Below, in pieces: positions 17,333 to 61,593 of a stretch of 64,000 nt of DNA. The stretch lies in the NCBI GenBank assembly GCA_048569615.1, contig JBLIRK010000005.1, positions 2,036-66,035 of the forward strand, given 5' to 3'. Numbering within the stretch: the stretch's first letter is position 1; every line of letters begins with the position of its first letter. This DNA is from Thermoplasmatota archaeon. GTDB taxonomy: Archaea; Thermoplasmatota; Penumbrarchaeia; Penumbrarchaeales; Penumbrarchaeaceae. A model generated the notes under the pieces. That model was not told the DNA's origin. It saw only the letters and a list, made by a program, of their open reading frames with translations, and did not search any database. The position numbers and the translations under genes are program-made.

Positions 17333-17338
17333 TCCGGC

Positions 17339-20300: not shown

Positions 20301-21991
20301 GATCCGCCAGAGGTATATCCTGTGATGTAGGCGTTACCCTGCTTGTCGGCGGTTATCGAATACCCCTCATCATTCAGGTCCCCGCCCAACATCGTGCTGT
20401 AGATTAGGCTGTTCCCGTCAATATCGAACTTGAAGGCGATCACGTCCTCCGAACCCTGGAGTGATGCGCTGGTTGTTACCGGGAAATCCCTGGAATCCGT
20501 GAAACCCGTAACATAAACATCGTCCCCACTGTCCAGCCACAAAGAGTATCCGATCTCCGATTGGAAACCCCCCATATATGTGGAGTATTCCATTGACGAT
20601 CCCGTACTGGAAAGTCTGAATAGTATTATGTCCAACCACCCCTTGAGTTCCTCGCTGTATGCCCCGGATGTGGTTGGGAATTCGGTGGAGAATGTGTATC
20701 CCACAACGTAAGGTCTTCCACTGCTGTCAACGGCGATGTCCATCCCGACATCGTCGTCCTCGCCTGCCACATAGGTGGAGAATACGATATCTGTTCCCGC
20801 CGGATTGAACTTGGTGACAAACACATCATAGTACCATGTTTCGTTCCAGTGTGTCGAGTTGAAGGCGTTCTTCACGGGGAAGTCCTGGGAGGAAGTTTCT
20901 CCGGTGACGTAAACGTTCCCGCCGGTATCGAAGCATATGCCGTACCCCCAGTCGTAATCGCTTCCGCCCAGGTAGGTGCTGAACGCTATCGAGGTCAGAT
21001 CCTTGTTCAGCTTGAAGGCGAATGCATCGATCCAGTCCAACATGGAGGTCTTGTAGGCACCTGAAGTGACCGGAAAGTTCATGGATACGGTGACCCCCGT
21101 GCAATAGGTGTTCCCCGAAGCGTCAAGACAGCTCTTGGATATCAGCTCCTCGCTCGATCCCCCGTAATAGGTCGATGATACCAGAGGATCGATCACTATC
21201 CTCCTTTCCGGGTCACGACCGGACACCAGGAATCCGTAGGTATTTTGGTCCACCTTCCTGAAGTGTACCGGAAGGCTTTCCTTACCTCCGTCCCCGTACC
21301 AGGCAGCCGGGCTGTCCTCGGTCAGTGCTTCTCCGATGGGGGTGGATATGACCAGCCTTCCATCCGTGATGCCCAGGCCGGAGTGGCCTTCGACATCGAA
21401 GAGGATAGCTTCCGTATCCGCCCCGGGACCTAAGATGATATCGTATTTCAGGGAACCTCCGTGCAGGGAGAAAATGATGTCCGTATCTTCCCAAACGCCT
21501 GTATATTGAACCTTTTCGAAGCTCCCCACCCCACAGCTGTATCTTGACGGGTCGTTCCCAAGAATGAAGTTGGTATTGGAGGATACCTTCGATATCCCAG
21601 AAGGCCTGACGCAGCTTGAAGAGCGGAAAGAGACCTTCAGGACAGCGCCGTCGATAGAGGTGTCCGCCTCTTCTCCGGATCTCGCGGGGAGCCGGTCCTT
21701 CATTTCGGTCATGAATGAGGCCATTTTCGACCTGTCCATCAGGTTGTAGTATATGCTGCTCTCCCCGAGTGCCACGTGACCGAAATCGGTTGAGGCCACG
21801 AAACAGAACTCTTCGCTCCACTGACCCAGGTTCTCCATGAAAATCCCATATGCGCCGCTGTAATCCCGATCCTGATGATCCGTTCCGGTCCCAGTGAGGA
21901 CGTCGGAAACAACCGGTCCGCTCCATGGTCCGCAGATCATGCCTGCAAGAAGGAATAGCGACATGCTGACAACAGCAAATTCATTTCTCAT
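17339..21991 (-). CDS. Giant surface protein (1550 aa): signal peptide, SBBP-type beta-propeller repeats, about 7 fibronectin-III-like domains, a TM anchor and a 135-aa Pro/Gln-rich cytoplasmic tail
   Basis: N-terminal MSLFLLAGMICG. Repeats of the type YLGGSDYDWGYGI..., YVAGEDDDVGMDIAVD and MLGGDLNDEGYSITAD are SBBP-like. FN3-like units end in ...YFYRLTALNQVGES and ...YEYQVTAFNTAGES. TM helix GIGAVIGISAAVAAVLIAAGAVIFLLI then RRKKK. Tail PQQ/PPQQ-rich. Confidence 0.75.
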   Translation of the reverse strand: MRNEFAVVSMSLFLLAGMICGPWSGPVVSDVLTGTGTDHQDRDYSGAYGIFMENLGQWSEEFCFVASTDFGHVALGESSIYYNLMDRSKMASFMTEMKDRLPARSGEEADTSIDGAVLKVSFRSSSCVRPSGISKVSSNTNFILGNDPSRYSCGVGSFEKVQYTGVWEDTDIIFSLHGGSLKYDIILGPGADTEAILFDVEGHSGLGITDGRLVISTPIGEALTEDSPAAWYGDGGKESLPVHFRKVDQNTYGFLVSGRDPERRIVIDPLVSSTYYGGSSEELISKSCLDASGNTYCTGVTVSMNFPVTSGAYKTSMLDWIDAFAFKLNKDLTSIAFSTYLGGSDYDWGYGICFDTGGNVYVTGETSSQDFPVKNAFNSTHWNETWYYDVFVTKFNPAGTDIVFSTYVAGEDDDVGMDIAVDSSGRPYVVGYTFSTEFPTTSGAYSEELKGWLDIILFRLSSTGSSMEYSTYMGGFQSEIGYSLWLDSGDDVYVTGFTDSRDFPVTTSASLQGSEDVIAFKFDIDGNSLIYSTMLGGDLNDEGYSITADKQGNAYITGYTSGGSGSNFPTTAGAYDTSFNGGDYDVFVTKLGPQGSNLIYSTYVGSGSNERGTFVRIDENKFAHVVGYTDSSGFPTTPTADYTTFQGGDEDCFIFKLSDAGSFLAFSSYLGGSDTEEAASVHVDSNGEAFVSGYTYSSNFPTTSGTVYPSSRGALDGFVTVMNLSTPPSQPRNLVVQGGVGRINISFEKPLFDSGMAVTHYTIYRGSSAADQHRYAKLTDLSFTDPDVENGVPYFYSVSANNSIGESVRSPAKSGMSIGITGPPKDLAAERGIGCVNLTWKAPEKNGGSPLTGYRIYRGSASNELDALTDVEPQMLKYQDKDVEFGGIYFYRLTALNQVGESPPSLIVNASVPDVPSAPPELTIASGNRWVRLEWSAPLEDGGLPVLGFRIYKEDGVGIRKLHATVGSHVLFYNDTAVVNGMTYVYNVTAFNEAGESKPTENRSATPMTIPDAPHIFDQEVGNSFVNISWIPPSNTGGDPISLYRIYCSSVIFEEERTFDVDAPGNFFLHSGLTNGMLYEYQVTAFNTAGESERSNSLALMPIARPGPPKSPVLTTGDEFIVITWEAPDNDGGLPILYYNIYKGTVSGEHKLLGYSDTMSVNDSEVTNGVEYFYVVTSVTEFSESAKSIEVSAVPMRVPDGPKDLDIVERDGRIDLSWEAPDNDGGSPVMGYRLFRGDSPDNMEKIADLGADIRSYIDPNVTNGVEYYYGISALNIRGASAKALFIPAVPKGPPSSPRNLKAERKGDSIVLTWDEPEDDGGSEITSYTIHRSEDGGDPANIHSVSNEITSYVDNDVKPGSSYAYTVKAVNGVGAGPDSEPAVMKLGKEEEGMGIGAVIGISAAVAAVLIAAGAVIFLLIRRKKKTVPPQDIQQYPQQQEAQQPGLQGVSQGALPPQQPYQYQFPPQQTYPPQQQFPPREQTAQLQPAAASLNQYDQPWSAPMEPAQEPSPQNIHPQEAVPASMEGPQMDVEYDPTQVEAVENLELPDPQQ

Positions 21992-30989: not shown

Positions 30990-31562
30990 TCAGTCCTTGC
31001 TCAGGATGGAATACACCCTTCCGTCAACCGGACCATCCTCGAGGATGTACCTGTCCCTGAGGGTACCTTCCATGAAGAAACCGCATTTCTCCATGACCCT
31101 GGATGATCTGATGTTGGGGGCAAAGATGACCGCTGATATCCTGTGGAGTTTCAATTTATCGAAACCGTAGGCCACAAGTCCTCTGACAGCTTCGGGCATT
31201 ATGCCCTGACCCCAGTGCTTCCTTCCCAGCCAGTAGCCGATCTCGCAGGCCCTATTCTGCCATTCGATGTTCATAAGGCCGATCCCGCCGATGACCCTGT
31301 CGAAATCCTTTTCCGCTATTGCAAGATTGAGTGCGCTTCCCTCATCGAACCATTTCATGTTCTTATCTATGAAGTTTATGGCATCATCCGGGCCGTACGG
31401 ATGAGGGATATTGAGGGTATATCTCGAGATGCCCCGATCGTTGATCTGTTCCGCGATATCATCCACATCCTCCATCCTGAACCTTCTCAGGACCACGATA
31501 CCGCAGTCAATCGTTATGTCTTCCTCGAACGGCTCCTCTTCCATGCTCCCGCCTTCTTCCAT
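30990..31562 (-). CDS. GNAT N-acetyltransferase (RimJ/RimL-like). The ORF could extend to 31610, but Met 31562 avoids overlap with the upstream gene.
   Basis: VVLRRFRMEDVDDI...GGIGLMNIEWQNRACEIGYWLGRKHWGQGIMPEAV...RISAVIFAPNIRSSRVMEKCGF is the acetyl-CoA-binding GNAT core. Confidence 0.85.
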   Translation of the reverse strand: MEEGGSMEEEPFEEDITIDCGIVVLRRFRMEDVDDIAEQINDRGISRYTLNIPHPYGPDDAINFIDKNMKWFDEGSALNLAIAEKDFDRVIGGIGLMNIEWQNRACEIGYWLGRKHWGQGIMPEAVRGLVAYGFDKLKLHRISAVIFAPNIRSSRVMEKCGFFMEGTLRDRYILEDGPVDGRVYSILSKD

Positions 31563-31566
31563 GGAA

Positions 31567-34500
31567 CTATCTTCTGTGATTAGTAATCTGTGATGGTGAT
31601 TCTGTATCATCCTTTCTCTTAATGAAGAACAGGTAGACCAAAACGGATAGTATCAGAAGGGAGATGATCAATGCAATTATTGCCATGATCACGGAAAGGG
31701 AAACGGAGCCCTTTGTTTCGGACTGCTCCTCCTCCACATTGGAGAGGCTCTCTTCAAGATCTTCCAGCAGCGTAAGGTCTTCCTCAATGTTCTGCAACCT
31801 TGACGAGAGCAGGAATAGATCTTGCCTAGTGGACATCAGTCCGGATATGTTTTCGAGCCTTTCCTTCAATGCAATGTCGAAATCGGAAATCCTGGATCCA
31901 AGTTCGTTGATGGTTTCCAGAATGAGGGTGTCGTTTGTCATTATCTGGTCCGACAGATGCTCCAGCCTCAAGCTTATACCTGCCAGGGAAAGGTCCTGGA
32001 TCCCGTTCAGAAGGTCCTCGATCTCCGTAATCGAGGAAGAGAGATTGGTCTCGGATCTGGCCATCATATCCCTCAATCCTGATAGTCCTACAAAAAGTTC
32101 CGAGCGGAAGAGCCGGATATCGCTGTCCATGCCGAGCAGTTCCTGATGCAGGGAAGAGTTGACAGCCTCGAGCTGAAGTGCCAATGATAGGAGCCCGCTC
32201 TCGAACCTCAGTCTTAGCATATCTATCTCGTTCTGTATCGTTTCGTTGAACCCGCTTAGGTCGGCCACCATGGTGCTCAATATCGCAGTGATATCGTTGC
32301 CAAGGGAGGTCATTCCGTGTGTCAGCGTGGTTATGTTCATGTCCACGGCCGAAAGCAGAACGAGGATCTCCATGAATCCCATGTCCATATCACCGGAAAG
32401 GATGTTGAGATCTGAGGCGGCATTGGTAACATTTACGTCCACAGCCCGAAGCAGAGCGATCATGGTTGCAGTATGCAGGTCGTAGGTCCCCTTGAAGCTG
32501 CCGAACTCGGTCCTGTGGGCGTTGAGCTCGCTTATTATGGTATCCAGGTCGGTCAGGACCTCGTCTATGTCCAGACCAAGTGCTGAAAGATCGGCTTTCA
32601 ATGATGAGTTCACACCATGCAGTTCGGAGCGAAGTTCTGTCAATCCCGAGATGACATCACTTATCGACCCGTTGAGGAAGGCGAGATCGTTGCTGTTGAC
32701 GTTTACGATGTTCAATATGGATGCGAGACTGAGGGTGATCGTGCCGTTGAAGAAGTCAACATCCGCTCCGGTGGAATTTATATCGTCCCAGATGTCCTCG
32801 AGCATAACCTTTATCCAGCCGGTCTCCGAAGTGTCCAGCAGTCCCACTGTTCCGTTCACATATCCAAGGATGACCTTCATCGTATCGATGTCAAGGGTGA
32901 TGTTCGTCTCGAAGGAGAGGAATTCGTCCCTGTGCGAGCGGAGGTTCGAGGAAAGGTCCTGAAGTTCGGCAAGAATGGAGGCGTTTGCTCCGTCAAGTGA
33001 TTTCGAGAGAAGTGTGATCCTGTATATGATGCCATCAAGTGTGTCGTTGAGGGAATCGACACCGCCAGATGTGCTTCCGAGCAGGGTGATGATCGTAGCG
33101 AGGTCAGTGCTGAATGTGTTGTTGATGAAATCTATGTCTGCGCTCCCCCGCTCCACAAGGTCGAAGAGGTCCGAGAGGTCCGAGAAGAGGGATAAGTTCA
33201 GGTAATCCAGGTCGAGGGCGATGTCCGCCAACAGGTTGGATATCAATGATAGTTCGGTATTGAAGCTTCCATTGACGTATTTGAGGTGGTTGTTGTTCTC
33301 GATCACGAAGTTTAGCAGTTCGGAAAGGTCCGTGCTCAAGGATGTGTTGAGATACCCGAGGCCGTCTTTGTTGTCCTTGGCGTATTGGAGAAGTTCGTAG
33401 AGTTCGGATTCTACCGTCATGTTGAGATATGTGAGCTTCTGGTTGATCATTGTGGCATAGAACAATAATGTGTTCAGGTCGGTGTCGATGGAGTTGTTCA
33501 TGAACTTCAGGTGGTTGTTGTTCTCTATGACGAAGGAGAGCAATGCCGATAGGTCCCCTTCTATCGACGAATTCATGTATTTCAGGAAGTTGTTGTTCTC
33601 GATAACGAATGAGAGCATTCCTGAGAGGTCGGAGCTTATGGTCCCGTTCATCGAATCCAGTTTGTTGTTCAAAGCTATCAGATAGTTCATCAGGGATGTG
33701 AGGTCGGAATCTATGGAATTGTTCATGTATTTGAGGTGGTTGTTGTTCTCGATGAGGAAGTCCAGAATATCGGCCAGGTCGGAATCTATGGAGGAGTTCA
33801 TGTATTTGAGGTGGTTGTTGTTCTCAACGATGAAGTCCCGGAGCTCTGTCAGGTCGGCTTGGATGGATGCGTTCATGTATTTCAGGTGGTTGCTGTTCTC
33901 GATGAGGAAGGTCAGAAGCTCGGAGAGATCGGAATCAATGGAGTTGTTCATGTATTTCAGGTAGTTGTTGTTCTGGACCAGGAACGAAAGTATTGTGGCG
34001 AGGTCTGAATCAATGGAGTTGTTCATGTATTTGAGGTGGTTGTTGTTCTGGATGAGGAACGTCAAGACCGTAGTGAGTCCCCCTCCGAAGCTCGCGTTGG
34101 TATATTTCAGAATATTGTTATTCTCCACGATGAAGTCCCGGAGCTCCGTCAATTCGGATCGGATGGATGTGTTCATGAACTTCAGGTGGTTGTTGTTCTC
34201 CACGACGAAATCCAGCAGCTCCGTGAGGTCCGAATCTATCGAGGCATTCATGTACTTCAGGTGGTTGTTGTTCTCCACGATGAAGGTCCTCAATTCGGTG
34301 AGGTCGCTCCAAATAGTGTCGTTCATGAACTCCAGGTGAGCGTTGTGTGCTATGAGATAATCGAGGATATCCGTTATATCGGAACCAAGGGAGGAGTTGA
34401 GGTATTTCAGTCGGTTATTGTTCTCCACGATGAAGGTTAAAAGATCCGCGAGGTCCGAATCTATCGAGGCGTTCATGTGCTTCAGGTGATTGTTGTTCTC

Positions 34501-37500
34501 GATGAGGAAGGTGAGTATATCGGAGAGCTCCGAATGGACGGAAGCGTTCATTCCCTTCAGGTAGTTGTTGCTGCCGATCACATAGGACAGGATATTGTCG
34601 AGGTCCGTGGAGAAGGAGATGTTCATGTACTTCAGTATGTTGTTGCTGTCTCCCACCATGGAGTAGATGTTTGAAAGAGAGGGGAGCACCGTGGAATTCA
34701 TGTACGTCAGATTGCCTAGGATGTTGTAAAGGAGCTGTTTGATGGCGGAATTATCCGTCCCGATGGTGTCGTTGATGGACGTTGCAAGGGCGAGAAGAGC
34801 GGAGAGCTGGGTGTGTTGTGTTCTGTTCATGTAATCCGCTATGTTCCAGGTCTTGAGCACCGTGGAGTTGATGTAATCGATATCCATCGCCAGGGCGTCT
34901 ATGGCCGCCTCGAGGGCCGACAGGTCCACGGATCCCGAACCGGAGGAGGATGGACTTTTATCGATCTTTACGGCATCCGTGATAACTATCGTGCTCTCCC
35001 CTCCGAGGGGCTCGACGGTAACAACGCCGTAATAGTAGGTGAGATTCCACTGAATATCAATGTCCTTGTAGTCATTATCGGTCGTTGAGTTGAGTCTGTA
35101 AAGGGCGTGCGGATCAGTCCCTCGGTAGATACCGTAAATGTAGGTGGAGTTCCCTACATCGTCCCAGGTCAGGTTCATGGAGCTCTGGAGAGCTGTCGCC
35201 GACAGGTTCCGGATGGTTACTGGACCGATATGGTCGATGAGATAGACCTTTCCCGCACCCGTTCCACCTTTGTCATTGCCATAGGCTCCGATGAGGATAT
35301 CATCGAGACCATCACGGTCGACGTCCCCTGCCCCGGAAACGGACCAACCCGAATAATCTGAGGTCTTTTCCCCGTAGAACGAAGCATCCGCTTCCGAAAG
35401 GTCCACATCCCTCCTCCATCCCGCCGGTTTTCCGTAGAAGATGTATGATTGGCCGGCATCCGTCGCCCCTTCATCGTTCGCATACGCTCCGATGAGGATA
35501 TCATCGAATCCGTCACCGTTGACATCTCCCGCTCCGGAAACAGATACACCTGACCTGTCGCTTGCGGATTCTCCCCAGAAAGATCCATCCGCTTCCGAAA
35601 GGTCGGTGTCGATCTTGAGCCCCGAAGACCTTCCAAGGATAAGGTAGGTCTGTCCGGCATCGGTCCCGCCGTCATCATCACTGTTTGCTCCTATGAGGAT
35701 GTCGTCATATCCGTCGCCATTGACGTCACCGGCTCCGGAGACGCTCTGCCCGGCGAGGTCTCCGGCATCCTCCCCCCAGAACGACGCATCGGCCTTGGAA
35801 AGGTCGGTGTCAATACTCCATCCGCTCCTCTTCCCGTAAACGAGGTAAACCTGGCCGGCATTCGCTCCCCCGTCATCATCCTGGACGGCTCCTATGAGGA
35901 TGTCATCGAATCCATCTCCATTGACATCTCCCGCACCGGAGATGGATTGACCCGACCTGTCATCTGCATCCTCGCCTATGAATGAAGCATCGGCATCAGA
36001 GAGGTCCGCATCCATCTTCCATCCGGTCGGTTTACCAAGTATGAGATAGGTCTGGCCAGAGTTGCTCCCGCCGTCCTCATCGAGAAGGGCGTTGATCAGG
36101 AAATCATCGTATCCGTCGGCATTCACGTCTCCTGCCCCTGAAACTGCGTAGCCGGAATAATCGCCCGAATCCTCGCCGATGAACGAAGCATCCGCTTCCG
36201 AAAGATCAGTGTCTCTGCTCCATCCCGCCGGTTTTCCAAGTATGAGATATGTCTGCCCGGCCGTAGTCCCTCCATCATCATCGCCGATGGCTCCTATCAG
36301 GAAATCATCATATCCGTCACCGTTGACATCCCCCGCACCCGACACAGCTCGTCCCGAATTATCGTCTGCATCCTCGCCAAGAAACGATGCGTCGGCATTT
36401 GAAAGATCGAAGTTCGTATCCATTCCCGTTCCATTTCCGAAGATCAGGTAGGTCTGCCCCGAATTGCTGCCTCCGTCATCGTCCTGGTAGGCACCAATTA
36501 GTATGTCATCATATCCGTCTCCGTTGACATCCCCCGCTCCGGATACGCAATACCCCGCGAAATCAGAGCCGTCCTCTCCGATATAACCCGAATAGTTCCC
36601 CGTCAGGTCCACGTCGATCTTCCCCCAGCGGACCGGGTCCGGATGTTCGGGATTGAGGTCCATCTCGTTCAGTATGTTGTCATTGTCCAGGTCCGGATCG
36701 AAGCTGTCTCCGATCCCATCCCTGTCATCGTCATGATCGCAGTAGATGGACACCGGGTGGGAATGGCCGGATTCAATACCTGAACCGTCAATGGTCCTTA
36801 TCGAGTAGTAGTAGGTCTTATGAAGTTCCACTTCCCGGTCGATATACTCCCTGAAGAAAAGGCCCGTGGCGGAAACCTCCTCGTAATCCCTCCCATCCAT
36901 GGACCTGTAAACGGTATAACCTGAAAGGGGCTTCCAGTATCGTGGATTCTTCCAGGATAATCCTACCTCCCTTTTATCCGGATCATAGGATACATCTATG
37001 AACTTGGGGGATGGAGGTCCGCTCATGTAGAACCATAGATAGGTCTGTCCTGCATAGGATGCTCCCTCTTCGTCATCCGGTGATGAGATGAGCAGATCGT
37101 CATATCCGTCTCCATTGACATCCCCCGCTCCCGAAACATGTTTGCCAGCGTGATCCCCCGCATCCTCCCCCCAGAAGGAAGATGTTGCATTGGACAGGTC
37201 GGTATCCATGCTCCAGCCCGTTGACTTTCCCGTTATCAGATAGACCTGGCCTGCATCGGATCCTCCGTCATCGTCGTAATATGCGCCTATCAGAAAATCA
37301 TCGTATCCATCCCCGTTGACGTCTCCGGTTCCGGAGACTGAAACACCGGAGGAATCGTTCGCATCCTCCCCCCAGAACGAAGCATCCGAGTTTGAGAGGT
37401 CCCGGTCCGTTTTCCAACCTGAAGGTCTGCCGAGGATCAGGTAGGTCTGACCGGCATTTGATCCTCCGTCATCATCCCCCAATGCGGAGATCAGCACATC

Positions 37501-38517
37501 ATCGAATCCATCTCCGTTCACATCCCCAGCACCGGAAACGCTCCAACCCGCAACATCGCCTCCATCCTCCCCCCAGAACGAAGCATCCGCATTGGATAGA
37601 TCGGTGTTCATTGTCCAGCCTGAAGGCTTACCAAGTATGATGTAAACCTGTCCGGCGCTTGTTCCACCGTCATCATCATAGGGGGATGCGACCACAATGT
37701 CGTCATATCCGTCTCCGTTCAAATCGCCTGCTCCGGCGATCGAATATCCTGCGTAATCACCGGCATCTTCGCCTATGAAGGATGCATCCACGTTGGAGAG
37801 GGCCGTATTGGATGACCATCCGGTCCTTTTCCCTAGAACAAGGTACGCCTGGCCTGCATTGCCCCCTCCTTCATCGTTGCCATAGGCACCTATGAGGAAG
37901 TCGTCGTAACCGTCTCCGTTCACATCTCCAGCTCCCGCCACCGAAAATCCCGAATCATCACTTGAGGATTCACCCTTGAAGGAAGCATCGGCGGTTGACA
38001 GACTCGTATCCATTTTCCATCCATCTTCCTTGCCGAATATGATATAGGTCTTTCCCACGGAGCTGGAGAAGCCGTCATCCCATCCGAAGGCCCCGATGGC
38101 GATATCATCGAATCCGTCACCGTTGACATCTCCCACCCCGGCCACACTGTATCCCGCCTCATCGTTGGAGTATTCTCCCCTGAAGGAAGCATCGGAATCG
38201 GAAAGGTCCGCATCCGGTGACCATCCGGAAGGCTTTCCGAAAATGATATATGTTTGTCCGGCGTAGGAACCGGTCTCGCTGTTCTGGGCAGCACCTATTA
38301 TGATATCATCATATCCGTCGCCGTTCACATCCCCTGCGCTGTCGGTGGATATTCCTGACATGTCCGAGGCGCTCTCCCCCCAGAATGATGCATGGGAATC
38401 GCTGAGGTCCATATCCATGTATCTCATCGCGGAGCCCTCATCATTGTTGAGAACGATGAGGGAGCACAGCATCAGGGCCGCCAGAGATACGGCCAGTGAT
38501 TTATTTTTCATCTGCAA
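31567..38517 (-). CDS. Giant surface protein (2316 aa): signal peptide, more than 25 FG-GAP/VCBS repeats in two blocks, FN3-like inserts, a TSP3-like Asp-rich segment, about 22 tandem 25-aa Asn-rich repeats and a C-terminal TM anchor
   Basis: N-terminal MQMKNKSLAVSLAALMLCSLIV. Reiterated GDVNGDGYDD(I/F)(L/I)IGA units. DHDDDRDGIGDSFDPDLDND. Repeats of consensus LKYMN(A/N)SIDSDL(T/S)ELL(T/D)F(L/V)IENNNH. TM helix VSLSVIMAIIALIISLLILSVLVYLFFI then KRKDD. Confidence 0.8.
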   Translation of the reverse strand: MQMKNKSLAVSLAALMLCSLIVLNNDEGSAMRYMDMDLSDSHASFWGESASDMSGISTDSAGDVNGDGYDDIIIGAAQNSETGSYAGQTYIIFGKPSGWSPDADLSDSDASFRGEYSNDEAGYSVAGVGDVNGDGFDDIAIGAFGWDDGFSSSVGKTYIIFGKEDGWKMDTSLSTADASFKGESSSDDSGFSVAGAGDVNGDGYDDFLIGAYGNDEGGGNAGQAYLVLGKRTGWSSNTALSNVDASFIGEDAGDYAGYSIAGAGDLNGDGYDDIVVASPYDDDGGTSAGQVYIILGKPSGWTMNTDLSNADASFWGEDGGDVAGWSVSGAGDVNGDGFDDVLISALGDDDGGSNAGQTYLILGRPSGWKTDRDLSNSDASFWGEDANDSSGVSVSGTGDVNGDGYDDFLIGAYYDDDGGSDAGQVYLITGKSTGWSMDTDLSNATSSFWGEDAGDHAGKHVSGAGDVNGDGYDDLLISSPDDEEGASYAGQTYLWFYMSGPPSPKFIDVSYDPDKREVGLSWKNPRYWKPLSGYTVYRSMDGRDYEEVSATGLFFREYIDREVELHKTYYYSIRTIDGSGIESGHSHPVSIYCDHDDDRDGIGDSFDPDLDNDNILNEMDLNPEHPDPVRWGKIDVDLTGNYSGYIGEDGSDFAGYCVSGAGDVNGDGYDDILIGAYQDDDGGSNSGQTYLIFGNGTGMDTNFDLSNADASFLGEDADDNSGRAVSGAGDVNGDGYDDFLIGAIGDDDGGTTAGQTYLILGKPAGWSRDTDLSEADASFIGEDSGDYSGYAVSGAGDVNADGYDDFLINALLDEDGGSNSGQTYLILGKPTGWKMDADLSDADASFIGEDADDRSGQSISGAGDVNGDGFDDILIGAVQDDDGGANAGQVYLVYGKRSGWSIDTDLSKADASFWGEDAGDLAGQSVSGAGDVNGDGYDDILIGANSDDDGGTDAGQTYLILGRSSGLKIDTDLSEADGSFWGESASDRSGVSVSGAGDVNGDGFDDILIGAYANDEGATDAGQSYIFYGKPAGWRRDVDLSEADASFYGEKTSDYSGWSVSGAGDVDRDGLDDILIGAYGNDKGGTGAGKVYLIDHIGPVTIRNLSATALQSSMNLTWDDVGNSTYIYGIYRGTDPHALYRLNSTTDNDYKDIDIQWNLTYYYGVVTVEPLGGESTIVITDAVKIDKSPSSSGSGSVDLSALEAAIDALAMDIDYINSTVLKTWNIADYMNRTQHTQLSALLALATSINDTIGTDNSAIKQLLYNILGNLTYMNSTVLPSLSNIYSMVGDSNNILKYMNISFSTDLDNILSYVIGSNNYLKGMNASVHSELSDILTFLIENNNHLKHMNASIDSDLADLLTFIVENNNRLKYLNSSLGSDITDILDYLIAHNAHLEFMNDTIWSDLTELRTFIVENNNHLKYMNASIDSDLTELLDFVVENNNHLKFMNTSIRSELTELRDFIVENNNILKYTNASFGGGLTTVLTFLIQNNNHLKYMNNSIDSDLATILSFLVQNNNYLKYMNNSIDSDLSELLTFLIENSNHLKYMNASIQADLTELRDFIVENNNHLKYMNSSIDSDLADILDFLIENNNHLKYMNNSIDSDLTSLMNYLIALNNKLDSMNGTISSDLSGMLSFVIENNNFLKYMNSSIEGDLSALLSFVIENNNHLKFMNNSIDTDLNTLLFYATMINQKLTYLNMTVESELYELLQYAKDNKDGLGYLNTSLSTDLSELLNFVIENNNHLKYVNGSFNTELSLISNLLADIALDLDYLNLSLFSDLSDLFDLVERGSADIDFINNTFSTDLATIITLLGSTSGGVDSLNDTLDGIIYRITLLSKSLDGANASILAELQDLSSNLRSHRDEFLSFETNITLDIDTMKVILGYVNGTVGLLDTSETGWIKVMLEDIWDDINSTGADVDFFNGTITLSLASILNIVNVNSNDLAFLNGSISDVISGLTELRSELHGVNSSLKADLSALGLDIDEVLTDLDTIISELNAHRTEFGSFKGTYDLHTATMIALLRAVDVNVTNAASDLNILSGDMDMGFMEILVLLSAVDMNITTLTHGMTSLGNDITAILSTMVADLSGFNETIQNEIDMLRLRFESGLLSLALQLEAVNSSLHQELLGMDSDIRLFRSELFVGLSGLRDMMARSETNLSSSITEIEDLLNGIQDLSLAGISLRLEHLSDQIMTNDTLILETINELGSRISDFDIALKERLENISGLMSTRQDLFLLSSRLQNIEEDLTLLEDLEESLSNVEEEQSETKGSVSLSVIMAIIALIISLLILSVLVYLFFIKRKDDTESPSQITNHRR
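33050..34700 (-). repeat. About 22 tandem 75-bp repeats inside the giant gene, each encoding a 25-aa unit with an N-x-S/T sequon; boundaries approximate
   Basis: The protein shows consecutive 25-residue units ...NNNHLKYMNASIDSDLTELL(T/D)F(L/V)IE.... Antisense + strand ORFs at 33470-34674 read as reiterated VVLDEE / FMYFRWLLFSM, the reverse complement of the same repeat. The repeat degenerates toward the 3' end. Confidence 0.7.
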
Positions 38518-44099: not shown

Positions 44100-45088
44100 C
44101 CTCCTCCTTTTCTGCTCGTATCCTTCTTCTTCTTGTTGATGAGGCCGAGAGCGGTCCTCTTCGGCCTCTTCGAGCTCACGATCCCGAAGGGACCATACAT
44201 CAGGGACAGGCAGTCCTTCTCGGGGCAGAGCTCCACGCATCTGCCGCAGAGTGTGCAGTCCTCCCCGGCGACATCGTCCTTCTCCATGTCCTCGTACACC
44301 TTATCGTGGTCCAGGGGGCAGACCCTGAGGCAGACGCGGCATCTTGTGCATTTCTCCGGGTCCTTCTTCAGCCAGGCAAGGGACGCACCGCTCAGAAGCG
44401 CCATCGCCCCGCCCATGGGGCAGATGCGGCAGAATGCCATCTTGATGAAGAAGGACGCCACCAGGAACAGCACCAGAATGACCAGTGCAAGGACGGGAAG
44501 CGTCGTCGTCCACGGCTCCAGACCGAATATCTGCTGGGTGACCGTAAAGAAACCCTTTGCGGGACAGACCTGACAGAAGGGGAGCGCCAGCGTTGACTGG
44601 CAGCCCATGATACCAAGGGCGGATATGCCGATGGGAATCGAAAGAAGGATCGTAAGGAAGATTATCACGTACTTGATCCGCCGGAGAACGACCCTGTGGC
44701 TCCATCTCAGCTTGTATGCGGGGATACCTGTCCTCTCCCGGAGCCACCCCATGAACTCCTGGACCATCCCGAAGGGGCAGAGCCAGGAGCACCAGAGCCT
44801 TCCCAGAAGGATGATCAGTATCAGGACCACCATGACCATGATCAGCACGTCAACGTAGCTGTTGTAGTAGCCCTGTGTGAGCCCGTCCTGGAGCTGATAA
44901 TAGAAGCAGGATGTCGGTGTGGTGTTGATATACCTGCAGGAGGCGTTGGGAAGGAATATCCTGCGGAGAAGGGGATATGTTCCAAAAGGGGGGAGACCGA
45001 GGAGCTGGCTTAGAATGAAACCCAGGGCAAGCCCCTGGACCGCGAACCTCCAAGGCCTGATCCTTGTCCCCTTGAACTCCCCCTTCAC
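44096..45088 (-). CDS. NapH/MauN-like membrane polyferredoxin: TM helices, a CSWLCPFG motif and two C-terminal 4Fe-4S ferredoxin motifs. The start is uncertain; GTG 45088 is proposed.
   Basis: LWCSWLCPFGMVQEF is the NapH/FixG-type motif. CQVCPAKG, CRICPMG, CTRCRVCLRVCP and CTLCGRCVELCP are present. The first 105 codons of ORF 44096..45403 are Arg/Gly-rich and overlap the upstream gene, so they are rejected. GTG at 45088 abuts the upstream stop (GTGA). Confidence 0.65.
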   Translation of the reverse strand: MKGEFKGTRIRPWRFAVQGLALGFILSQLLGLPPFGTYPLLRRIFLPNASCRYINTTPTSCFYYQLQDGLTQGYYNSYVDVLIMVMVVLILIILLGRLWCSWLCPFGMVQEFMGWLRERTGIPAYKLRWSHRVVLRRIKYVIIFLTILLSIPIGISALGIMGCQSTLALPFCQVCPAKGFFTVTQQIFGLEPWTTTLPVLALVILVLFLVASFFIKMAFCRICPMGGAMALLSGASLAWLKKDPEKCTRCRVCLRVCPLDHDKVYEDMEKDDVAGEDCTLCGRCVELCPEKDCLSLMYGPFGIVSSKRPKRTALGLINKKKKDTSRKGGG

Positions 45089-46380
45089 CCCCGTGCCCTC
45101 CTTTTCCTGATATGGTGTATCCAGAGCCTTGAAAGGACGGCAAGCTGGGCGATGAGGACAGCCACCAGCGCAAGCTGTACCACCTTCATCCACTGGACCA
45201 GGTCGTCGATCTCGCCGAGCACCGCCTCCGTCCTCTTGGTCTTTCCGTCGATAATATATACGTGGGGGGTGACGTAGCCCGATGTGTAATCGCCTTTGCC
45301 TATGTATCCGCCCTGTCCGGCGATTATCTCCATTTCCCCGTCCCTGTCCGGATCGGCGATCACGACACCCAGCACATCCCTTCCGAGCTCCCCGGAGGTC
45401 CATTCCAGGACCCTTGTCTCGGCATCGTAGACCCTGATGTAACCCGCCATGTTCGAAACGACGATCTCCAACGTCCCGTCGTCATCGACGTCCCCGATAT
45501 CGAGCCCGTAGGCCTTCGGGCCGATGTTCCCGCTCTTCCATACCTGGACGAAGTCATTGCCGTCGTAGGTGAAGATGAAGCACCATCCGTCCCTGTACCT
45601 GTACCCGTTTGAAACCACCATCTCCAGGACTCCGTCGCCGTCGAGGTCCACGACCTTCAAACCTTCAACACATCCTCCGAGATCGGGGCTCTTCCATTTC
45701 AGATCCCCAGTTTCCAGGTCGAATATCCTGATGTAGCCCTCTCCCCGGATATCTCCGAGCGACACTCCGGATGTGACGATCAGCTCCTCCTTCCCGTCCT
45801 GGTCAAGGTCGGCGATATCGATCTCCCTCAGCCTCGAATCGAAGGGCTCGAGCTCCCTGTAGGGATCGGATGAATTGTGCTCGAAGAAGTAGACCTGCCC
45901 CCATCCCTGGTCCGTCTTGAAACCCGACCCTACGATGAGCTCGTTCTCGCCGTCCCCGTCGACATCATGGAGGAGCAGGCCGTGGGCATCCCTGACTAGA
46001 GTCACTGATTCCCATTCGATCTCCTTCGTCCGTCCGTCCAGTGCCCTGACGTTCCCGTCACCGTCCCCGATGATGATCTCCATGGAATCGTCATTGTCGA
46101 ACTGGCCGGCCCTGAGGCCCCAGCACCGGGTCCCGAACCTGGGTGAGGTCCAGTCAACGGAGTAATCACCCCCGGCATATTCGACGGAGGTCACGTATCC
46201 GTCGTAAGAGCCGAAAAGTATCTCGTCCCTTCCGTCTCCGTCAACATCCTCGCATATGATGGACTGGAACCTTCCGATGCCGGAGGTGAGCTCCCTGGGC
46301 TCCACCACGGCTGATGCGGGCTGAAAGAATATCATCATCATCAGCAGGATGCAAAGGAAGTGAGGGAACCGCCCCTTCAT
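45085..46380 (-). CDS. FG-GAP/VCBS beta-propeller protein with signal peptide and C-terminal TM anchor. ORF 45085..46581 is trimmed to Met 46380.
   Basis: MKGRFPHFLCILLMMMIFFQPASA is a signal peptide. Blades EDVDGDGRDEILFGS, HDVDGDGENELIVGS, ADLDQDGKEELIVTS, VDLDGDGVLEMVVSN, GDVDDDGTLEIVVSN and ADPDRDGEMEIIAG. C-terminal LALVAVLIAQLAVL then RKRRARG. The trimmed start gives an ATGA overlap with the upstream stop. Confidence 0.7.
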   Translation of the reverse strand: MKGRFPHFLCILLMMMIFFQPASAVVEPRELTSGIGRFQSIICEDVDGDGRDEILFGSYDGYVTSVEYAGGDYSVDWTSPRFGTRCWGLRAGQFDNDDSMEIIIGDGDGNVRALDGRTKEIEWESVTLVRDAHGLLLHDVDGDGENELIVGSGFKTDQGWGQVYFFEHNSSDPYRELEPFDSRLREIDIADLDQDGKEELIVTSGVSLGDIRGEGYIRIFDLETGDLKWKSPDLGGCVEGLKVVDLDGDGVLEMVVSNGYRYRDGWCFIFTYDGNDFVQVWKSGNIGPKAYGLDIGDVDDDGTLEIVVSNMAGYIRVYDAETRVLEWTSGELGRDVLGVVIADPDRDGEMEIIAGQGGYIGKGDYTSGYVTPHVYIIDGKTKRTEAVLGEIDDLVQWMKVVQLALVAVLIAQLAVLSRLWIHHIRKRRARG

Positions 46381-47573
46381 CCCCTGGACCTCCGGATCTC
46401 CCTGTATGCGGGATAGAAGAATGCGACCAAGGCAGCTGCCCCGATAATGATGAGGGATACGGCGGTGATGGTCCCGATGGGAAGTCCGTCCCCCTCTCCC
46501 GCTTCGCCGCCGAATCCGTAGAGTATGACGGTATGGCTCTTTCCCAGTCCAGAGGCCAGGAACCTGCCGTCCGGGGACCACCTTGACATCATCACCATGG
46601 CATGCTGCTCCATACCGTCCTTGATCACTTTCAGTTCGGTACCGGTCACGGAATCCCTTATCTTCAGAGTGAGGTCAACACCGGAGGTGGCAGCTATCTC
46701 CTGAAAGGGGTGGAAATCGACGGACCTGACGCAGTTGTTGTCGGACCATGTGGCGAGGATCTCGCCGGTGGATGAGTTCCAGACCTTGATCTTGTAATCC
46801 CTGGAGCCGGTGATGAGCCTTGAATCATCCGGAGACCAGTCGATGTCCAGAACACCTGTGGTATGCCCGGTCGCGTTCATCACCTCGGTCCTTGTGGAGA
46901 ACTCCATGATCCTTATCATCCTGTCATCGGATGCGGATGCGAGCCTGTCACCCTCGTTCGACCATCTCACTGCGAGCACTCCATCCCTGTGCCAGTTGAG
47001 GGTGTGGTAGAGCCTGCCTGTCTGCATGTCCCATATGCGGACAGCGTTCTCCTCCTGGTTCTGCGGGATGACCTTGTCCCTCCCCGAGCCGGACGCCAAG
47101 TATCTGCTGTCAGGGGAGAAATCGAGGCAGAGGATGGAGCCGGAGTGCCCCCTCAGCATGTACTTCTCCTCCCAGGTCGCCGTATCGAACACGGTTATAA
47201 TGCGGTCGTCCCCGCCCACAGCCAGGAGCTTTCCGTCGGGGGAGAAGCAGCAGGCGCGGAGCGGATTCGTCCCCTCGGGGGAGAACCCGTCGCATCTCGT
47301 ATCCTCCGGGACGAGGTCGAGCACGGTCCTGATCCCACCGTCAGTGGCGTTCAGAACCACGCATTTATCGTCGAAGAACGTGGCGGCGATCATCGATCCG
47401 TCGGGGGACCACGACAGCTTCCAGAATGTCGCCTCGCTGTCCTCCTTGGTGTACATCCAGATGACCTCCGCCCTTGCCGGATCTATTTCCGCTACCTGGG
47501 CTGCTGCGGGATTCAAGGGCAGAAGGAGGATGAGCAGTCCGAATGCTGTCGCCGGAATGACGGCTATTTTCAT
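46377..47573 (-). CDS. WD40-repeat beta-propeller protein with signal peptide and C-terminal TM anchor
   Basis: LRGHSGSILCLDFSPDSRYLASGS, VRIWDMQTGRLYHTLNWHRDGVLAVRWS and TGHTTGVLDIDWSPDDSRLITGSRDYKIKVWN. N-terminal MKIAVIPATAFGLLILLLPLNPAAAQ. C-terminal AVSLIIIGAAALVAFF then REIRRSRG. Confidence 0.8.
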   Translation of the reverse strand: MKIAVIPATAFGLLILLLPLNPAAAQVAEIDPARAEVIWMYTKEDSEATFWKLSWSPDGSMIAATFFDDKCVVLNATDGGIRTVLDLVPEDTRCDGFSPEGTNPLRACCFSPDGKLLAVGGDDRIITVFDTATWEEKYMLRGHSGSILCLDFSPDSRYLASGSGRDKVIPQNQEENAVRIWDMQTGRLYHTLNWHRDGVLAVRWSNEGDRLASASDDRMIRIMEFSTRTEVMNATGHTTGVLDIDWSPDDSRLITGSRDYKIKVWNSSTGEILATWSDNNCVRSVDFHPFQEIAATSGVDLTLKIRDSVTGTELKVIKDGMEQHAMVMMSRWSPDGRFLASGLGKSHTVILYGFGGEAGEGDGLPIGTITAVSLIIIGAAALVAFFYPAYREIRRSRG

Positions 47574-49231
47574 GTAAGCACCTCCCTCTCCTCGTTCCGG
47601 TTCCTCAAGTAAACAACTAAGGTGACGAATCCGGTTAGCAAGTTCAGGCCGGCGATCACCGCTATTATGATACCGTTGCTCAAGCGACCGCTTTTATCGA
47701 CTGTTGACGAAGCTGTTTCGTCATCTGCCTCCTCCCCGGGCTCCACGATTACATTGGCGGAGGCCGTTCCCGGCTCCAACCCTTCCTTCACGACTTCCAA
47801 TTCGATATTGACCGTCGACCTCGAGCTGACCCTGATGGGGAAGTAGAATACCTCGACCTCCCCCTCCTCGTTGGTCAAGTATTTCAACCTCGTATTGCCA
47901 TCCTTGTCAAAGGCAATGTACCCAGCGGAAATGGAGAAGGTGACCTCAGCTCCCTCGACGGGGGAGCCCTCGTTATCGGTCACCCTTACGATCATGGATG
48001 TGGAATTGTCGGAGGTTATCTCCTTATCCGTTGTGTTGATGGCCGCAGACAGACCGGGCGGGCGGACCCCAACGCAGTAAACGGACCGGTCCGAGGAGCC
48101 GAAATATACCCTTTCCAGGTAGATGACGGGTGATGAATAGACATAACCCCCGGTCGAGAAGGTCCATACCAGGTCCCCGTTGGTCTCGTTGAAGCAGTAG
48201 AGGTTGTAGTCGTCGGAGCCGATGAACAATTTCCCATCCGAGACCACGGGGGACGAGCCCCCCTGGAAATCATGGGTGGGGGAGGACCAGATCACCTCGT
48301 CTTCGGAGATGTTGCCGTCCGAATCAGGGTCATCGATCGGAAGGCACCATGTGTACTCGAAGGACCCGAAGAATACCCTGTCATCTCTGACGATCGGTGT
48401 GGAATAGGTATCGTGGCCAGTGAAGAAGGACCATTTAATATCCATGGTATCCGGGTCCACATTGTAGATCCTCTGGTCCATCCCTGCGGTCAGCAGCAGA
48501 TTATCATCATGGAGCACTCCGGAGGAATACACCTCGGCATACTCCCCGAACTCCACCTTGTCCAGTACCTCTCCGTCGTCCAGCGATAGCCTGTAGAGGC
48601 TCCTTCCGGTGTCCCCGATGAAGAGCACCCCCCTTTCCTCGTCTACGATCCCCGAGGCCCAAATGGGAAGGTCGGATATCGGAGACCTCCAGATCTCCTG
48701 TCCCTCCTTAGATAATCTGTACACGATCCCGGCCAGGTCCGAGAAGATGACCGAATCCCCGAAGGCGTGGGCCGAGGATTTGATCTCTCCCTCGGTCTCG
48801 AAGGACCAGAGGGTCTCAGGTTCGGAGGTCGATCCCTCCGGTGGAAGCGAGATGCAGTAGAAATTGCGGTCAAGTGATCCGAAATATCCCCTGCCATTCT
48901 CCAGAAGGACCGTTGCTTGTACATCGTCCCCCGACTTGAACTTCCAGTTCATACTCCCGGTCACGGGGTCCAGGCAGTAGACCCAGTCGTCCTCCGAGCC
49001 AATGACCAGACCGCCTGGGTAGAAAGTGGGAGAGGAGAGAACCTGACTCCCGGTGTCGAAGGACCATATCAATTCGCCCTTCTCAGGAGCATCCCCGTCT
49101 TCAAGGGCCAGGTGCAGGGGGTCCCCCCTCCACTGGCTCCATGCGCCCTCTGAGGGATCCGAACCCGTGAAGGATATAAAGAGGAGGAGAACTAGGATGG
49201 CCGCCGCTGTGATCTTGGAAATAGAGCTCAT
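47570..49231 (-). CDS. PQQ-like (BamB/YxaL-type) beta-propeller repeat protein with a C-terminal Ig-like domain and TM anchor
   Basis: Repeats of the type (W/Y)(S/K)F.TG..(V/I).SSP. and the linker GDLVWTFSTGGYVYSSPVIY. Signal peptide MSSISKITAAAILVLLLFISF. C-terminal IIIAVIAGLNLLTGFVTLVVYL then RNRNEE. Confidence 0.7.
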   Translation of the reverse strand: MSSISKITAAAILVLLLFISFTGSDPSEGAWSQWRGDPLHLALEDGDAPEKGELIWSFDTGSQVLSSPTFYPGGLVIGSEDDWVYCLDPVTGSMNWKFKSGDDVQATVLLENGRGYFGSLDRNFYCISLPPEGSTSEPETLWSFETEGEIKSSAHAFGDSVIFSDLAGIVYRLSKEGQEIWRSPISDLPIWASGIVDEERGVLFIGDTGRSLYRLSLDDGEVLDKVEFGEYAEVYSSGVLHDDNLLLTAGMDQRIYNVDPDTMDIKWSFFTGHDTYSTPIVRDDRVFFGSFEYTWCLPIDDPDSDGNISEDEVIWSSPTHDFQGGSSPVVSDGKLFIGSDDYNLYCFNETNGDLVWTFSTGGYVYSSPVIYLERVYFGSSDRSVYCVGVRPPGLSAAINTTDKEITSDNSTSMIVRVTDNEGSPVEGAEVTFSISAGYIAFDKDGNTRLKYLTNEEGEVEVFYFPIRVSSRSTVNIELEVVKEGLEPGTASANVIVEPGEEADDETASSTVDKSGRLSNGIIIAVIAGLNLLTGFVTLVVYLRNRNEEREVLT

Positions 49232-49339
49232 CCCAACGGTTATTTCAGACCCTCCCGAACGATCGCCATTTGCCAGGCTCTCCGGAACATTGCGGGTCTG
49301 CGGTTATAATAGTTATGGGGGGCTCCCCGAATCTGTAAC

Positions 49340-50626
49340 CTATCCCTTTCTTATCCTCCTGTATCTCTTCCAGAATACGGCGAGGATGACACCGATGATG
49401 ATCGCGACTGCAAGGGCGAGGAAGAGCATATCCCTGTTTGCGCTCACCTCCCGCCCGATATCGAATGCGTCGTCCCCATCATCATCATCGGTAACCGGAA
49501 TGTTCTGCCTGAGGCATCTTACATACCCGTTCCTGTCCCCGAAGAAGACCTTGGAGCCGTATGCCGACGGGGAGACCTCGCTGGCATCCCCGTATTCGAA
49601 GCTCCGGTAGATGCTTCCGTTCCCCATATGGACCATGACCAGCCCCTGTTCACAGGTCGCATATACGAGCTTCCCGCCTATTACGGGGGATGTCTCAAGC
49701 TGGGAAGGACCGAGGTCAAGGGTCCATTCTATCGAACCATATTCTGCATCCAGGCAGTAGAGGAGCCCGTCATTGGCCCCGACCATAACCTTCTCGGCGT
49801 TTACGGCAGGTGAGGATTGGATGTCGCCTCCCAGGGCGGTGCTCCAGATGAGCTCCCCGTCCCCGGCGTCAAGGCAGTACATGTTGCTGTCGTAGGAGCC
49901 GAAATATATCCTTCCTTCCATGATCGCGGGTGAGGATGGAATGTAAGCAGCGGAGAAGTTCCATTTATGCTCCCCGGTCAATGCATCCAGACATCTCAGC
50001 ATCCCGTCGCAGGAACCGAAATATAGGTTGTTGTCATGGACGGCAGGGGTTGTGTGTATCCATCCCTGGCATCCGATGTAATCCCAAGAGGGGGTCCCAT
50101 CCGGTTTCAGGCTGTAGAACTTAGAATCATAGGATCCGAAATAGATCATGTCGCCGGGTCCGTTGGGGGAGGAAATGATCTCCTTCCCCGATCCCGTATC
50201 AAAGGTCCATAGCTGCGCTCCTTCTTCCATGGAGAGCGCCGTCACCATACCAGAACTGTCGCACACTGCGAGATCGTTCGTTTCCTCGATATACAGGGGT
50301 GTCGAGAATATAGGTGCTCCGACGTTGTAGCTCCATTCCAGGCTCCCGAACTCCGAATTCAGCTTGTAAACCGTCCCGTTGGAGGTGCCGAACACGCACC
50401 AGCCTTCCTCAGCGATGACTGCGGTGCCGATGGATGAATCCGCCCGGAACTCCCAGGACAGGAAGACCTCTCCCTTCAACGGATCTGAAAGGTCGGTGGT
50501 GGTTCTTCCCGTATTCGACGGATCTCCCCTGAAGCTGTTCCAGCCTAGCGCAGCGGGACCCGCAACCATCAATATCGACAGGAGAATCGAAAGGATCGCC
50601 CCTGTCCTTCCAGGGGAGCACTTCAT
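49340..50626 (-). CDS. Second PQQ-like beta-propeller repeat protein with signal peptide and C-terminal TM anchor; the ORF could extend to 50698
   Basis: MKCSPGRTGAILSILLSILMVAGPAALG is a signal peptide. Repeats LEWSYNVGAPIFSTPLY, QLWTFDTGSGKEIISSP, HKWNFSAAYIPSSPAI and LIWSTALGGDIQSSPAV. C-terminal LALAVAIIIGVILAVFW then KRYRRIRKG. Confidence 0.7.
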   Translation of the reverse strand: MKCSPGRTGAILSILLSILMVAGPAALGWNSFRGDPSNTGRTTTDLSDPLKGEVFLSWEFRADSSIGTAVIAEEGWCVFGTSNGTVYKLNSEFGSLEWSYNVGAPIFSTPLYIEETNDLAVCDSSGMVTALSMEEGAQLWTFDTGSGKEIISSPNGPGDMIYFGSYDSKFYSLKPDGTPSWDYIGCQGWIHTTPAVHDNNLYFGSCDGMLRCLDALTGEHKWNFSAAYIPSSPAIMEGRIYFGSYDSNMYCLDAGDGELIWSTALGGDIQSSPAVNAEKVMVGANDGLLYCLDAEYGSIEWTLDLGPSQLETSPVIGGKLVYATCEQGLVMVHMGNGSIYRSFEYGDASEVSPSAYGSKVFFGDRNGYVRCLRQNIPVTDDDDGDDAFDIGREVSANRDMLFLALAVAIIIGVILAVFWKRYRRIRKG

Positions 50627-50678
50627 GGAGATAGAACCAGTTCGACTGGGATTAAAAGCTTGCGCTCTCATAAGTTCG

Positions 50679-61518: not shown

Positions 61519-61593
61519 ATTAACAGCTCCGAAACCAACCTGAGTCCAATATCTTGGTGTATTATTAATCGTTTTAGGTAACGCCCAGTATGG

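Follow-up and report, generated by a model that had tools for sequence, protein, structure and literature searches.

Stalked, glycosylated surface proteins held by a transmembrane (TM) anchor are known from Archaea, as are stalks extended by repeats. In tetrabrachion, a surface glycoprotein of Staphylothermus marinus, beta-rich distal arms are connected to the membrane by a 70-nm helical coiled-coil stalk (PMC5744192). SlaB, the anchor of the Sulfolobales surface layer (S-layer), joins N-terminal beta domains to a C-terminal trimeric coiled-coil helix and a C-terminal TM anchor, and belongs to a heavily N-glycosylated S-layer (PMC10903991). The same order of a beta-rich head, a C-terminal, predicted helical stalk and a TM anchor is present in a 2314-aa surface protein encoded on the minus strand of a 64,000-nucleotide stretch of Thermoplasmatota DNA (contig JBLIRK010000005.1; hereafter the window, meaning the whole stretch analyzed). 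The protein (P0007) is 100% identical to the NCBI entry 'hypothetical protein ACMUIE_02135 [Thermoplasmatota archaeon]', and its stalk holds an array of 23 tandem units of 25 residues. In the account we favor, with moderate confidence, this array would be an old, lineage-specific tandem amplification of a 25-residue segment, lengthening a probably N-glycosylated coiled-coil stalk.

Tetrabrachion resembles the window protein further in a stalk periodicity that departs from the heptad, but its stalk is built from 11-residue repeats as a right-handed tetramer, whereas the period here is 25/7 = 3.57 residues per turn. The heads differ as well, being FG-GAP propellers here, and the stalk holds the 23-unit array with one N-x-S/T sequon per unit. 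The SlaB helix, in turn, spans 132 aa and is non-repetitive, compared with a 1074-aa stalk and a 575-aa repeat array here. Sequence searches of the PDB with the array, a unit profile and the C-terminal stalk retrieved no tetrabrachion or SlaB chain and no detectable homology to either. The period itself has a parallel in the delocalized-stutter coiled coils described by Lupas and Hartmann, where a stutter is spread over two or three heptads: 18 residues resolve into 7+7+4 and 25 into 7+7+7+4, yielding 3.60 and 3.57 residues per turn (PMC4786415 for 18/5). The 18/5 periodicity from a delocalized stutter is established in that work, and the 25/7 case follows by the same arithmetic, an extension made here and not quoted from it. 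Unlike in those coiled coils, each period here adds a conserved sequon and an Asn-rich patch.

In its head, the window protein is akin to prokaryotic FG-GAP propeller proteins, with 14 FG-GAP repeats and DxNxDGxDD-type loops, and thousands of bacterial and archaeal FG-GAP proteins match it. Among the matches inspected, judged by their recorded domains, bacterial heads are combined with RTX, cadherin or immunoglobulin-type tails, whereas a sequon-rich helical stalk with a TM helix was seen in the 16 relatives examined, which are apparently archaeal. Bacterial adhesin stalks and the variable-number tandem repeats of eukaryotic mucins likewise lengthen the spacer between anchor and head by tandem amplification of a short unit. 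Mucin repeats place glycan acceptor sites in each unit, although as disordered, Pro/Thr/Ser-rich and often polymorphic carriers of O-glycans; the window array is predicted to be helical, bears N-sequons, is practically free of proline (1 in 575 aa) and has diverged in its DNA.

A first-pass annotation of the window had placed about 22 tandem 75-bp repeats at 33050-34700, and position, unit length and copy number all hold up. Sequon Asn residues are spaced exactly 25 residues apart across 22 consecutive intervals (aa 1274, 1299 ... 1824 of the open reading frame, ORF), and cutting in this register yields 23 units without gaps or indels (aa 1270-1844; 32986-34710). Residue autocorrelation reaches 0.48 at lag 25 and does not exceed 0.15 at any lag other than the multiples of 25. 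The consensus of the 23 units, LKYMNxSIDSDLxELLxFLIENNNH, agrees with the one proposed earlier. N5 and S/T7 are found in 23/23 units, L1 and L12 in 21/23 each, and position 7 interchanges between Ser and Thr, no other residue being seen there. A sequon had been ascribed to each unit, which is right, together with an NNN run, which is complete in only 12/23. The antisense ORFs reading 'FRWLLFS(T)M' and 'VVVVL(H)DE' do exist, as by-products of the repeat. The array was also placed properly between the FG-GAP/fn3 ectodomain and the TM anchor, with 427 aa of non-repetitive stalk intervening before the latter. The ORF runs from 31567 to 38517 on the minus strand; read from a TTG it comprises 2316 codons, and the ATG at 38511 gives a product of 2314 aa. 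It is laid out as follows:

31567..38511, minus strand: whole gene of the predicted type-I surface protein, ATG at 38511, stop codon 31567-31569
38428..38511, minus strand: predicted Sec signal peptide MKNKSLAVSLAALMLCSLIVLNNDEGSA, from its n/h/c-region pattern
37030..38406, minus strand: first block of seven FG-GAP repeats with a 67-aa period, an integrin-alpha-like beta-propeller (Pfam; autocorrelation 0.46 at lag 67)
36739..37029, minus strand: first fn3-like domain, by analogy with precomputed fn3/TSP_3 hits of relatives
36601-36738, minus strand: Asp-rich linker after the first fn3-like domain, resembling TSP3-type repeats recorded for relatives
35233..36600, minus strand: second block of seven FG-GAP repeats, the second propeller
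34960..35232, minus strand: second fn3-like domain, with a weak fn3_SORL1 match at aa 1105-1171, below cut-off
34711..34932, minus strand: pre-array stalk of degenerate sequon-bearing, predicted helical units, sequon spacings 14, 18 and 20 aa
32986..34710, minus strand: array of 23 in-register units of 25 aa / 75 bp (ORF aa 1270-1844), N5-x-S/T7 in each
33211..34635, minus strand: well-conserved core of the array, units 1-19, 25-54 bits against a hidden Markov model (HMM) of the unit
31705..32985, minus strand: post-array, non-repetitive, predicted helical stalk, 427 aa with 14 sequons, collinear with relatives P0004, P0002/P0006, P0012 and P0025
31621..31704, minus strand: C-terminal TM anchor, predicted from sequence
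31570..31620, minus strand: short predicted cytoplasmic tail KRKDDTESPSQITNHRR, with a basic KRK motif at its start

A type-I, N-out topology is predicted from the signal peptide together with the C-terminal TM helix, which a basic motif follows directly. FG-GAP (PF01839) matches 14 stretches of the whole protein above the Pfam threshold (303 bits, E 1.3e-92), and the second fn3-like domain contains a conserved PLGGES motif and is collinear with that of relatives. The stalk of 1074 aa contains a single proline in all. The FG-GAP blades also register as tandem repeats of their own, 201 bp long, at window positions 35650-36408 (minus strand; 70-74% matches by Tandem Repeats Finder, TRF), and the blades of relative P0011 share 84-89% identity in DNA. 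PF26619.1 is recorded for the window protein in the database's precomputed Pfam list and is absent from the Pfam scans made here (whole protein at E<=0.1, stalk at E<=10).

The units had further been described as nearly identical at the DNA level, which they are not. TRF does find the 75-bp periodicity, at 67% matches and over only 10.9 copies, along with a 225-bp period at 72-75%; this higher-order period was considered and set aside as marginal, identity between blocks of three units being 0.61 compared with 0.60 for single units. Pairwise nucleotide identity averages 0.55 over all units and 0.65 over core units 2-15, with a maximum of 0.84. At third codon positions it is 0.50, and no exact direct repeat in the array is longer than 31 bp. 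For core unit pairs, the Nei-Gojobori method gives a pS of 0.64 and a pN of 0.27 (dN/dS ~0.23), with 21% of pairs at or beyond the saturation limit of pS >= 0.75. S/T7 alone is written with seven codons (TCC, TCG, AGC, ACG, ACA, ACT and ACC), which cover both Ser families and Thr. Because synonymous sites are near saturation, dN/dS is ~0.23 and the S/T7 codons are this varied, we conclude that the array is an old duplication series kept by protein-level selection, under purifying selection and without recent homogenization. Slippage has little substrate in such an array. Since every unit is distinguishable, short reads place each one uniquely and collapse in assembly is unlikely, and phase switching by frame is excluded because the 75-bp unit keeps the reading frame. 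The slippage, phase variation and assembly collapse foreseen in the first-pass annotation rested on near-identical DNA copies that do not exist; for annotation purposes, the 75-bp repeat is unlikely to be an assembly or variability problem. Neither a relative nor another copy of the locus turned up when genome and metagenome contig collections were scanned with the array.

In the hydrophobicity spectrum, the array has its maximum at 3.56-3.58 residues, corresponding to the 25/7 harmonic. The maximum of the pre-array stalk is at 3.58, a value that ranks second among the peaks of the post-array stalk. A period of 25/7 = 3.57 is one that coiled coils can adopt, their range being about 3.5-3.67 residues per turn. 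When the unit is projected on a helical net of 25 residues in 7 turns, a narrow seam appears, made up of positions 15, 8, 1, 19 and 12 at angles from -23 to +34 degrees and flanked by M4 and F18 on one side and by N5 (+49 degrees), N23 (+63 degrees) and L16 on the other; Asn22 lies within the seam and S/T7 at -110 degrees. Core residues follow each other along the seam with a spacing of 3-4-4-3-4-3-4, that is 7+11+7, equal to three heptads and one delocalized stutter.

Structure prediction with AlphaFold2 (AF2) is in line with this geometry. For a monomer of units 9-13, using a pseudo-alignment of five non-overlapping five-unit rows taken from the array itself, AF2 returned one uninterrupted helix over residues 2-124 (mean predicted local distance difference test score, pLDDT, 93.7; 4/5 models at least 88). 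A single-sequence run of 14 units was likewise all helix, in the form of two long helices (residues 2-178 and 187-348) with a pLDDT of 50 and a predicted template modeling score (pTM) of 0.21, interrupted at the GGG (FGGGL) of unit 8, the sole Gly run among the units. The 2-124 helix and the 1 proline in 575 aa describe a continuous helix without breakers, with the caveats that one model draws on a self-alignment and the single-sequence one has a pLDDT of 50. On these models the unit is alpha-helical, and the self-alignment result supports this without being decisive. Nothing in Pfam scored above threshold on the stalk; subthreshold matches to V_ATPase_I_N and NDC80_loop were dismissed as helical-repeat noise, as was an NCBIfam CcmS match (24.8 bits versus a cut-off of 125).

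To place the array in its family, a two-unit profile was searched against 1.84 billion representative proteins. Only five hits were obtained, two of which, P0004 and P0002, are relatives of the same architecture; P0003 and P0005 were rejected as unrelated repeat proteins. A full-length search retrieved about 17 relatives at 38-53% identity, one of them labeled 'FG-GAP repeat protein [Thermoplasmata archaeon]'. All are built alike, with a signal peptide followed by two propeller/fn3 modules, a helical stalk and a TM helix. They come from Thermoplasmatota-type metagenomes and appear to be archaeal. Their stalks range from 233 to 647 aa, the window stalk with 1074 aa being the longest, and most of them have a hydrophobic period of 3.54-3.69. 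Heads are collinear, with the fn3 end motif at residue 1170 in the window protein, 1171 in P0012 and 1172 in P0025; compared with the latter two, the window stalk has ~480-780 extra residues at its head-proximal end. Searched with the HMM of the 25-aa unit, the window protein yields 22 hits, 20 of these with 25-54 bits, and relatives yield 0-5 with 2-13 bits, P0012 for instance containing the single copy 'MNLSIDSDLAQIL'. Since the unit HMM is strong in the window protein and weak or nil in its relatives, the expanded 25-aa array is specific to this lineage.

Two relatives, P0011 and P0019, have amplified an 18-aa sequon unit (AGMNATLRSDLANVLAGM) that shares the MNxS/T-h-x-x-D-h core and makes 5 turns with its 18 residues; this amplification is independent of the 25-aa array. 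The P0011 stalk (locus L022, 11871-12881) comprises two arrays of these 54-bp (18-aa) units, organized as 108-bp higher-order repeats. As the 108-bp period shows 88-92% matches in DNA, expansion in P0011 is recent, unlike in the old window array. A protein with an unrelated head, P0001 (3933 aa, from a 44-kb ENA metagenome contig), contains a proline-free repeat region of 2100 aa with an 81-aa period, a hydrophobic period of 3.69 and 149 sequons (212 in the whole protein), and judging by these features is a second, independent sequon-studded helical rod. The paralog P0048 (ACMUIE_00700), assigned to the same metagenome-assembled genome (MAG) by its locus-tag prefix, has FG-GAP repeats over roughly its first 900 residues, followed by a non-FG-GAP region and a TM anchor. 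As it lacks a helical sequon stalk, the same type of head is found on different types of stalk within one genome.

Sequons are concentrated in the stalk. It contains 41 N-x-S/T motifs compared with 20.9 +/- 3.7 expected from shuffled sequences, and only 10 in the reverse orientation S/T-x-N. In most relatives, stalk sequons exceed the shuffle expectation ~2-3.3-fold (32 vs 9.8 in P0011, 23 vs 6.6 in P0017), and the reverse motif is mostly much rarer than the sequon. Across the family, densities amount to 2-9 sequons per 100 aa in stalks vs 0.2-1.6 in heads; within the window, the stalk has 3.8, other surface proteins have 0.5-0.9, about equal to their reverse motif, and cytoplasmic proteins have 0-1. 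Around the 274 stalk sequons outside the array, hydrophobic residues are enriched at -8, -4, -1, +3, +7 and +10, so that the sequon usually sits on the flank of the seam. In the post-array stalk, compared with P0004 and P0002 (33% and 27% identical overall), sequons align to sequons at 8/14 and 7/14 positions, whereas other Asn residues are conserved at 3/15 and 0/15.

AglB is nearly universal in Archaea and membrane proteins of Thermoplasma are N-glycosylated (PMC11407970). N-x-S/T sequons are present in 23/23 units of what is predicted to be an extracytoplasmic segment, as in N-glycosylated archaeal surface proteins. Given that the sequon is enriched and conserved and that AglB is near-universal in Archaea (PMC11407970), N-glycosylation of the array is the most economical reading and a probable one. 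The earlier suggestion of a glycosylated stalk between ectodomain and anchor thereby gains indirect support, from the predicted N-out topology, the sequon in 23/23 units with its S/T7 written in seven codons, the 41 sequons vs 20.9 expected and the conservation of sequons in relatives.

These elements can be combined into a model. One 25-residue segment would have been amplified at the head-proximal end of an alpha-helical stalk, each added unit contributing seven turns (7+11+7) that continue the hydrophobic seam in register (positions 1, 8, 12, 15 and 19, plus 4 and Asn22) and setting one N-x-S/T sequon at the same spot beside it. The protein would be exported by Sec and held by its C-terminal TM helix, stalk helices would associate into a coiled coil, and an AglB-type oligosaccharyltransferase would glycosylate the regularly spaced sequons, one per ~3.7 nm of each chain. 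The array may then serve as a stiff, hydrated, protease-shielded spacer that keeps the two FG-GAP propeller heads, possibly adhesive or ligand-binding, far from the membrane, and it would add up to ~85 nm of reach if fully extended and not folded back (575 aa x ~0.15 nm).

Several observations weigh against this model and lead to other readings of the array. For the high-confidence helix, AF2 was given a pseudo-alignment built from units of the array itself, and the program is inclined to model amphipathic repeats as long helices. Helices form poorly from Asn-rich NNN(H) runs, and it is there that pLDDT dips in the single-sequence model, which reaches only 50 and is broken at the GGG of unit 8. 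Its two helices (2-178 and 187-348) on either side of FGGGL would suit an array that folds back on itself as antiparallel helical hairpins or bundles, hinged for example at this site, into a compact domain that could still be glycosylated. The hydrophobic face is broadened by M4, F18, L16 and I20, and a 1074-aa stalk, if extended, would measure ~160 nm, well beyond the archaeal stalks known so far and more than twice the 70-nm stalk of tetrabrachion (PMC5744192). We nevertheless consider folding-back unlikely, since the two-helix model has a pLDDT of 50 and a pTM of 0.21 and the confident model contains no turn within five units. Only one unit has a Gly run, the array has 1 proline in 575 aa, and units of 18 and 25 aa make up whole helical turns, which fits a continuous seam. 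A second set of concerns relates to the sequons. No STT3/AglB-type family was found in a scan that covered ORFs of the window only, and the h-N-x-S/T-h context is partly forced, as polar triplets have few sites in an amphipathic helix. Asn5 and Ser/Thr7 might be structural residues (a polar zipper, a register layer or a cap) with an incidental likeness to sequons: N5 and N23 adjoin the seam at +49 and +63 degrees, N22 lies inside it, and coiled-coil cores with polar Asn layers have been described (PMC13580157). This is improbable, however, as N5 and S/T7 stand ~160 degrees apart and their joint invariance fits the N-x-S/T recognition rule better. A structural role also sits poorly with position 7 being only Thr or Ser, with the 41 N-x-S/T vs 10 S/T-x-N in the stalk where counts elsewhere in the genome are about equal, and with relatives conserving sequons and not Asn at large.

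A beta-helix or coiled solenoid had been offered as an alternative in the first-pass annotation. In its explicit form, the units would stack as an alpha/beta solenoid like leucine-rich repeats (LRR) or as a beta-helix, one turn per 25 residues, with an Asn ladder. The unit length of 25 aa and the conserved Leu/Asn pattern are superficially LRR-like, and single-sequence phmmer searches against the PDB gave weak matches to LRR proteins, variable lymphocyte receptors (VLR) and ALS, at E 2.6e-4 to 0.013, a further point against the coiled-coil model. This lead was dropped after the Pfam scan, the unit-profile PDB search and AF2: no LRR or solenoid Pfam model matches the stalk even at E<=10, and the position-specific unit profile retrieves no LRR structure from the PDB at E<=1. 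The segment F18-x-I20-x-x-N23-x-x-L1 is one residue off LxLxxNxL. Neither a significant profile match nor the LxxLxLxxN(x)L signature is found, nor is there one beta-strand per stacked unit, both AF2 runs containing no strand at all. With a dominant hydrophobic harmonic of 25/7 (period 3.57), a continuous AF2 helix, essentially no Pro or Gly turn residues in the array and relatives that carry an Ala-rich 18-aa unit with the same motif, a solenoid is very improbable. Even less weight, close to none, can be given to the idea of a hypervariable or phase-variable contingency repeat, or an assembly artifact, whose copy number changes fast by slippage or recombination. The organization is indeed tandem, and the recently amplified 108-bp units of P0011 (88-92% identity) indicate that stalk arrays in this family can expand. 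The near-identical units that would permit slipped-strand mispairing are missing, though, units being 55-65% identical (mean 55%, maximum 84%) with no exact repeat longer than 31 bp and synonymous sites near saturation. Each unit is distinguishable, the 75-bp length keeps the frame, and the ORF stays open over 6.9 kb in perfect register. The instability and solenoid ideas should be dropped, and we retain the probably glycosylated coiled-coil stalk as the favored model.

Unit lengths in different proteins correspond to whole numbers of turns (18 aa = 5, 25 aa = 7, 36 aa = 10 and 81 aa = 22), which raises the rather tentative possibility of a design principle: proline-free coiled-coil rods with sequons in phase with the seam that grow by whole-turn units, the window protein being an extreme case. 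If true, such proteins would form periodically glycosylated 'bottle-brush' rods of ~85-160 nm, a helical, N-linked counterpart of mucin domains, and these Thermoplasmatota, which may lack a wall, could use them as a glycocalyx or as an adhesin of long reach. A simple sequence rule for lengthening archaeal glycosylated stalks would follow, with a unit of whole turns and one sequon beside the seam. The 25-residue unit would further offer a scaffold that displays N-glycans along a rigid rod at constant intervals of ~3.7 nm, a tractable model of AglB-type enzymes acting on sequons in helix-forming sequence, and possibly a module for protein engineering. To our knowledge, the cell surface of these uncultured Thermoplasmatota has not been the subject of experiments. 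Our literature searches found no description of an FG-GAP/sequon-stalk family, nor of the combination seen here: a 25/7 unit whose invariant sequon adjoins the seam, an FG-GAP family of Thermoplasmatota type with sequon-enriched stalks, and independent amplification of whole-turn units.

The genomic surroundings of the gene contain further surface proteins. A neighboring 2-hydroxyglutaryl-CoA dehydratase (HGD-D) gene is 78% identical to genes of Thermoplasmatota MAGs, and no tRNA or Rfam family was found in the window. A GNAT acetyltransferase ORF (30990-31610, minus strand), when read from its first ATG, shares 44 nt with the 3' end of the large gene; a start at an internal Met (MEEGGSMEE...) would abolish the overlap. 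Four consecutive beta-propeller proteins, each with a C-terminal TM anchor, are encoded directly downstream of an FtsX-like permease (50679-54086, 1135 aa) within 45085-54086 on the minus strand: FG-GAP_3 (45085-46581), WD40 (46377-47573) and two PQQ proteins (47570-49231 and 49340-50698). This cluster may be a surface-propeller operon. Two other regions, 12652-21991 and 57952-63942, are dense in large surface proteins, namely PKD/FG-GAP (980 aa), Kelch (423 aa), fn3/SBBP (1550 aa), transglutaminase/Big (1188 aa) and Big_7 (782 aa), of which at least two, the Kelch and transglutaminase/Big proteins, end in a TM helix and a basic tail.

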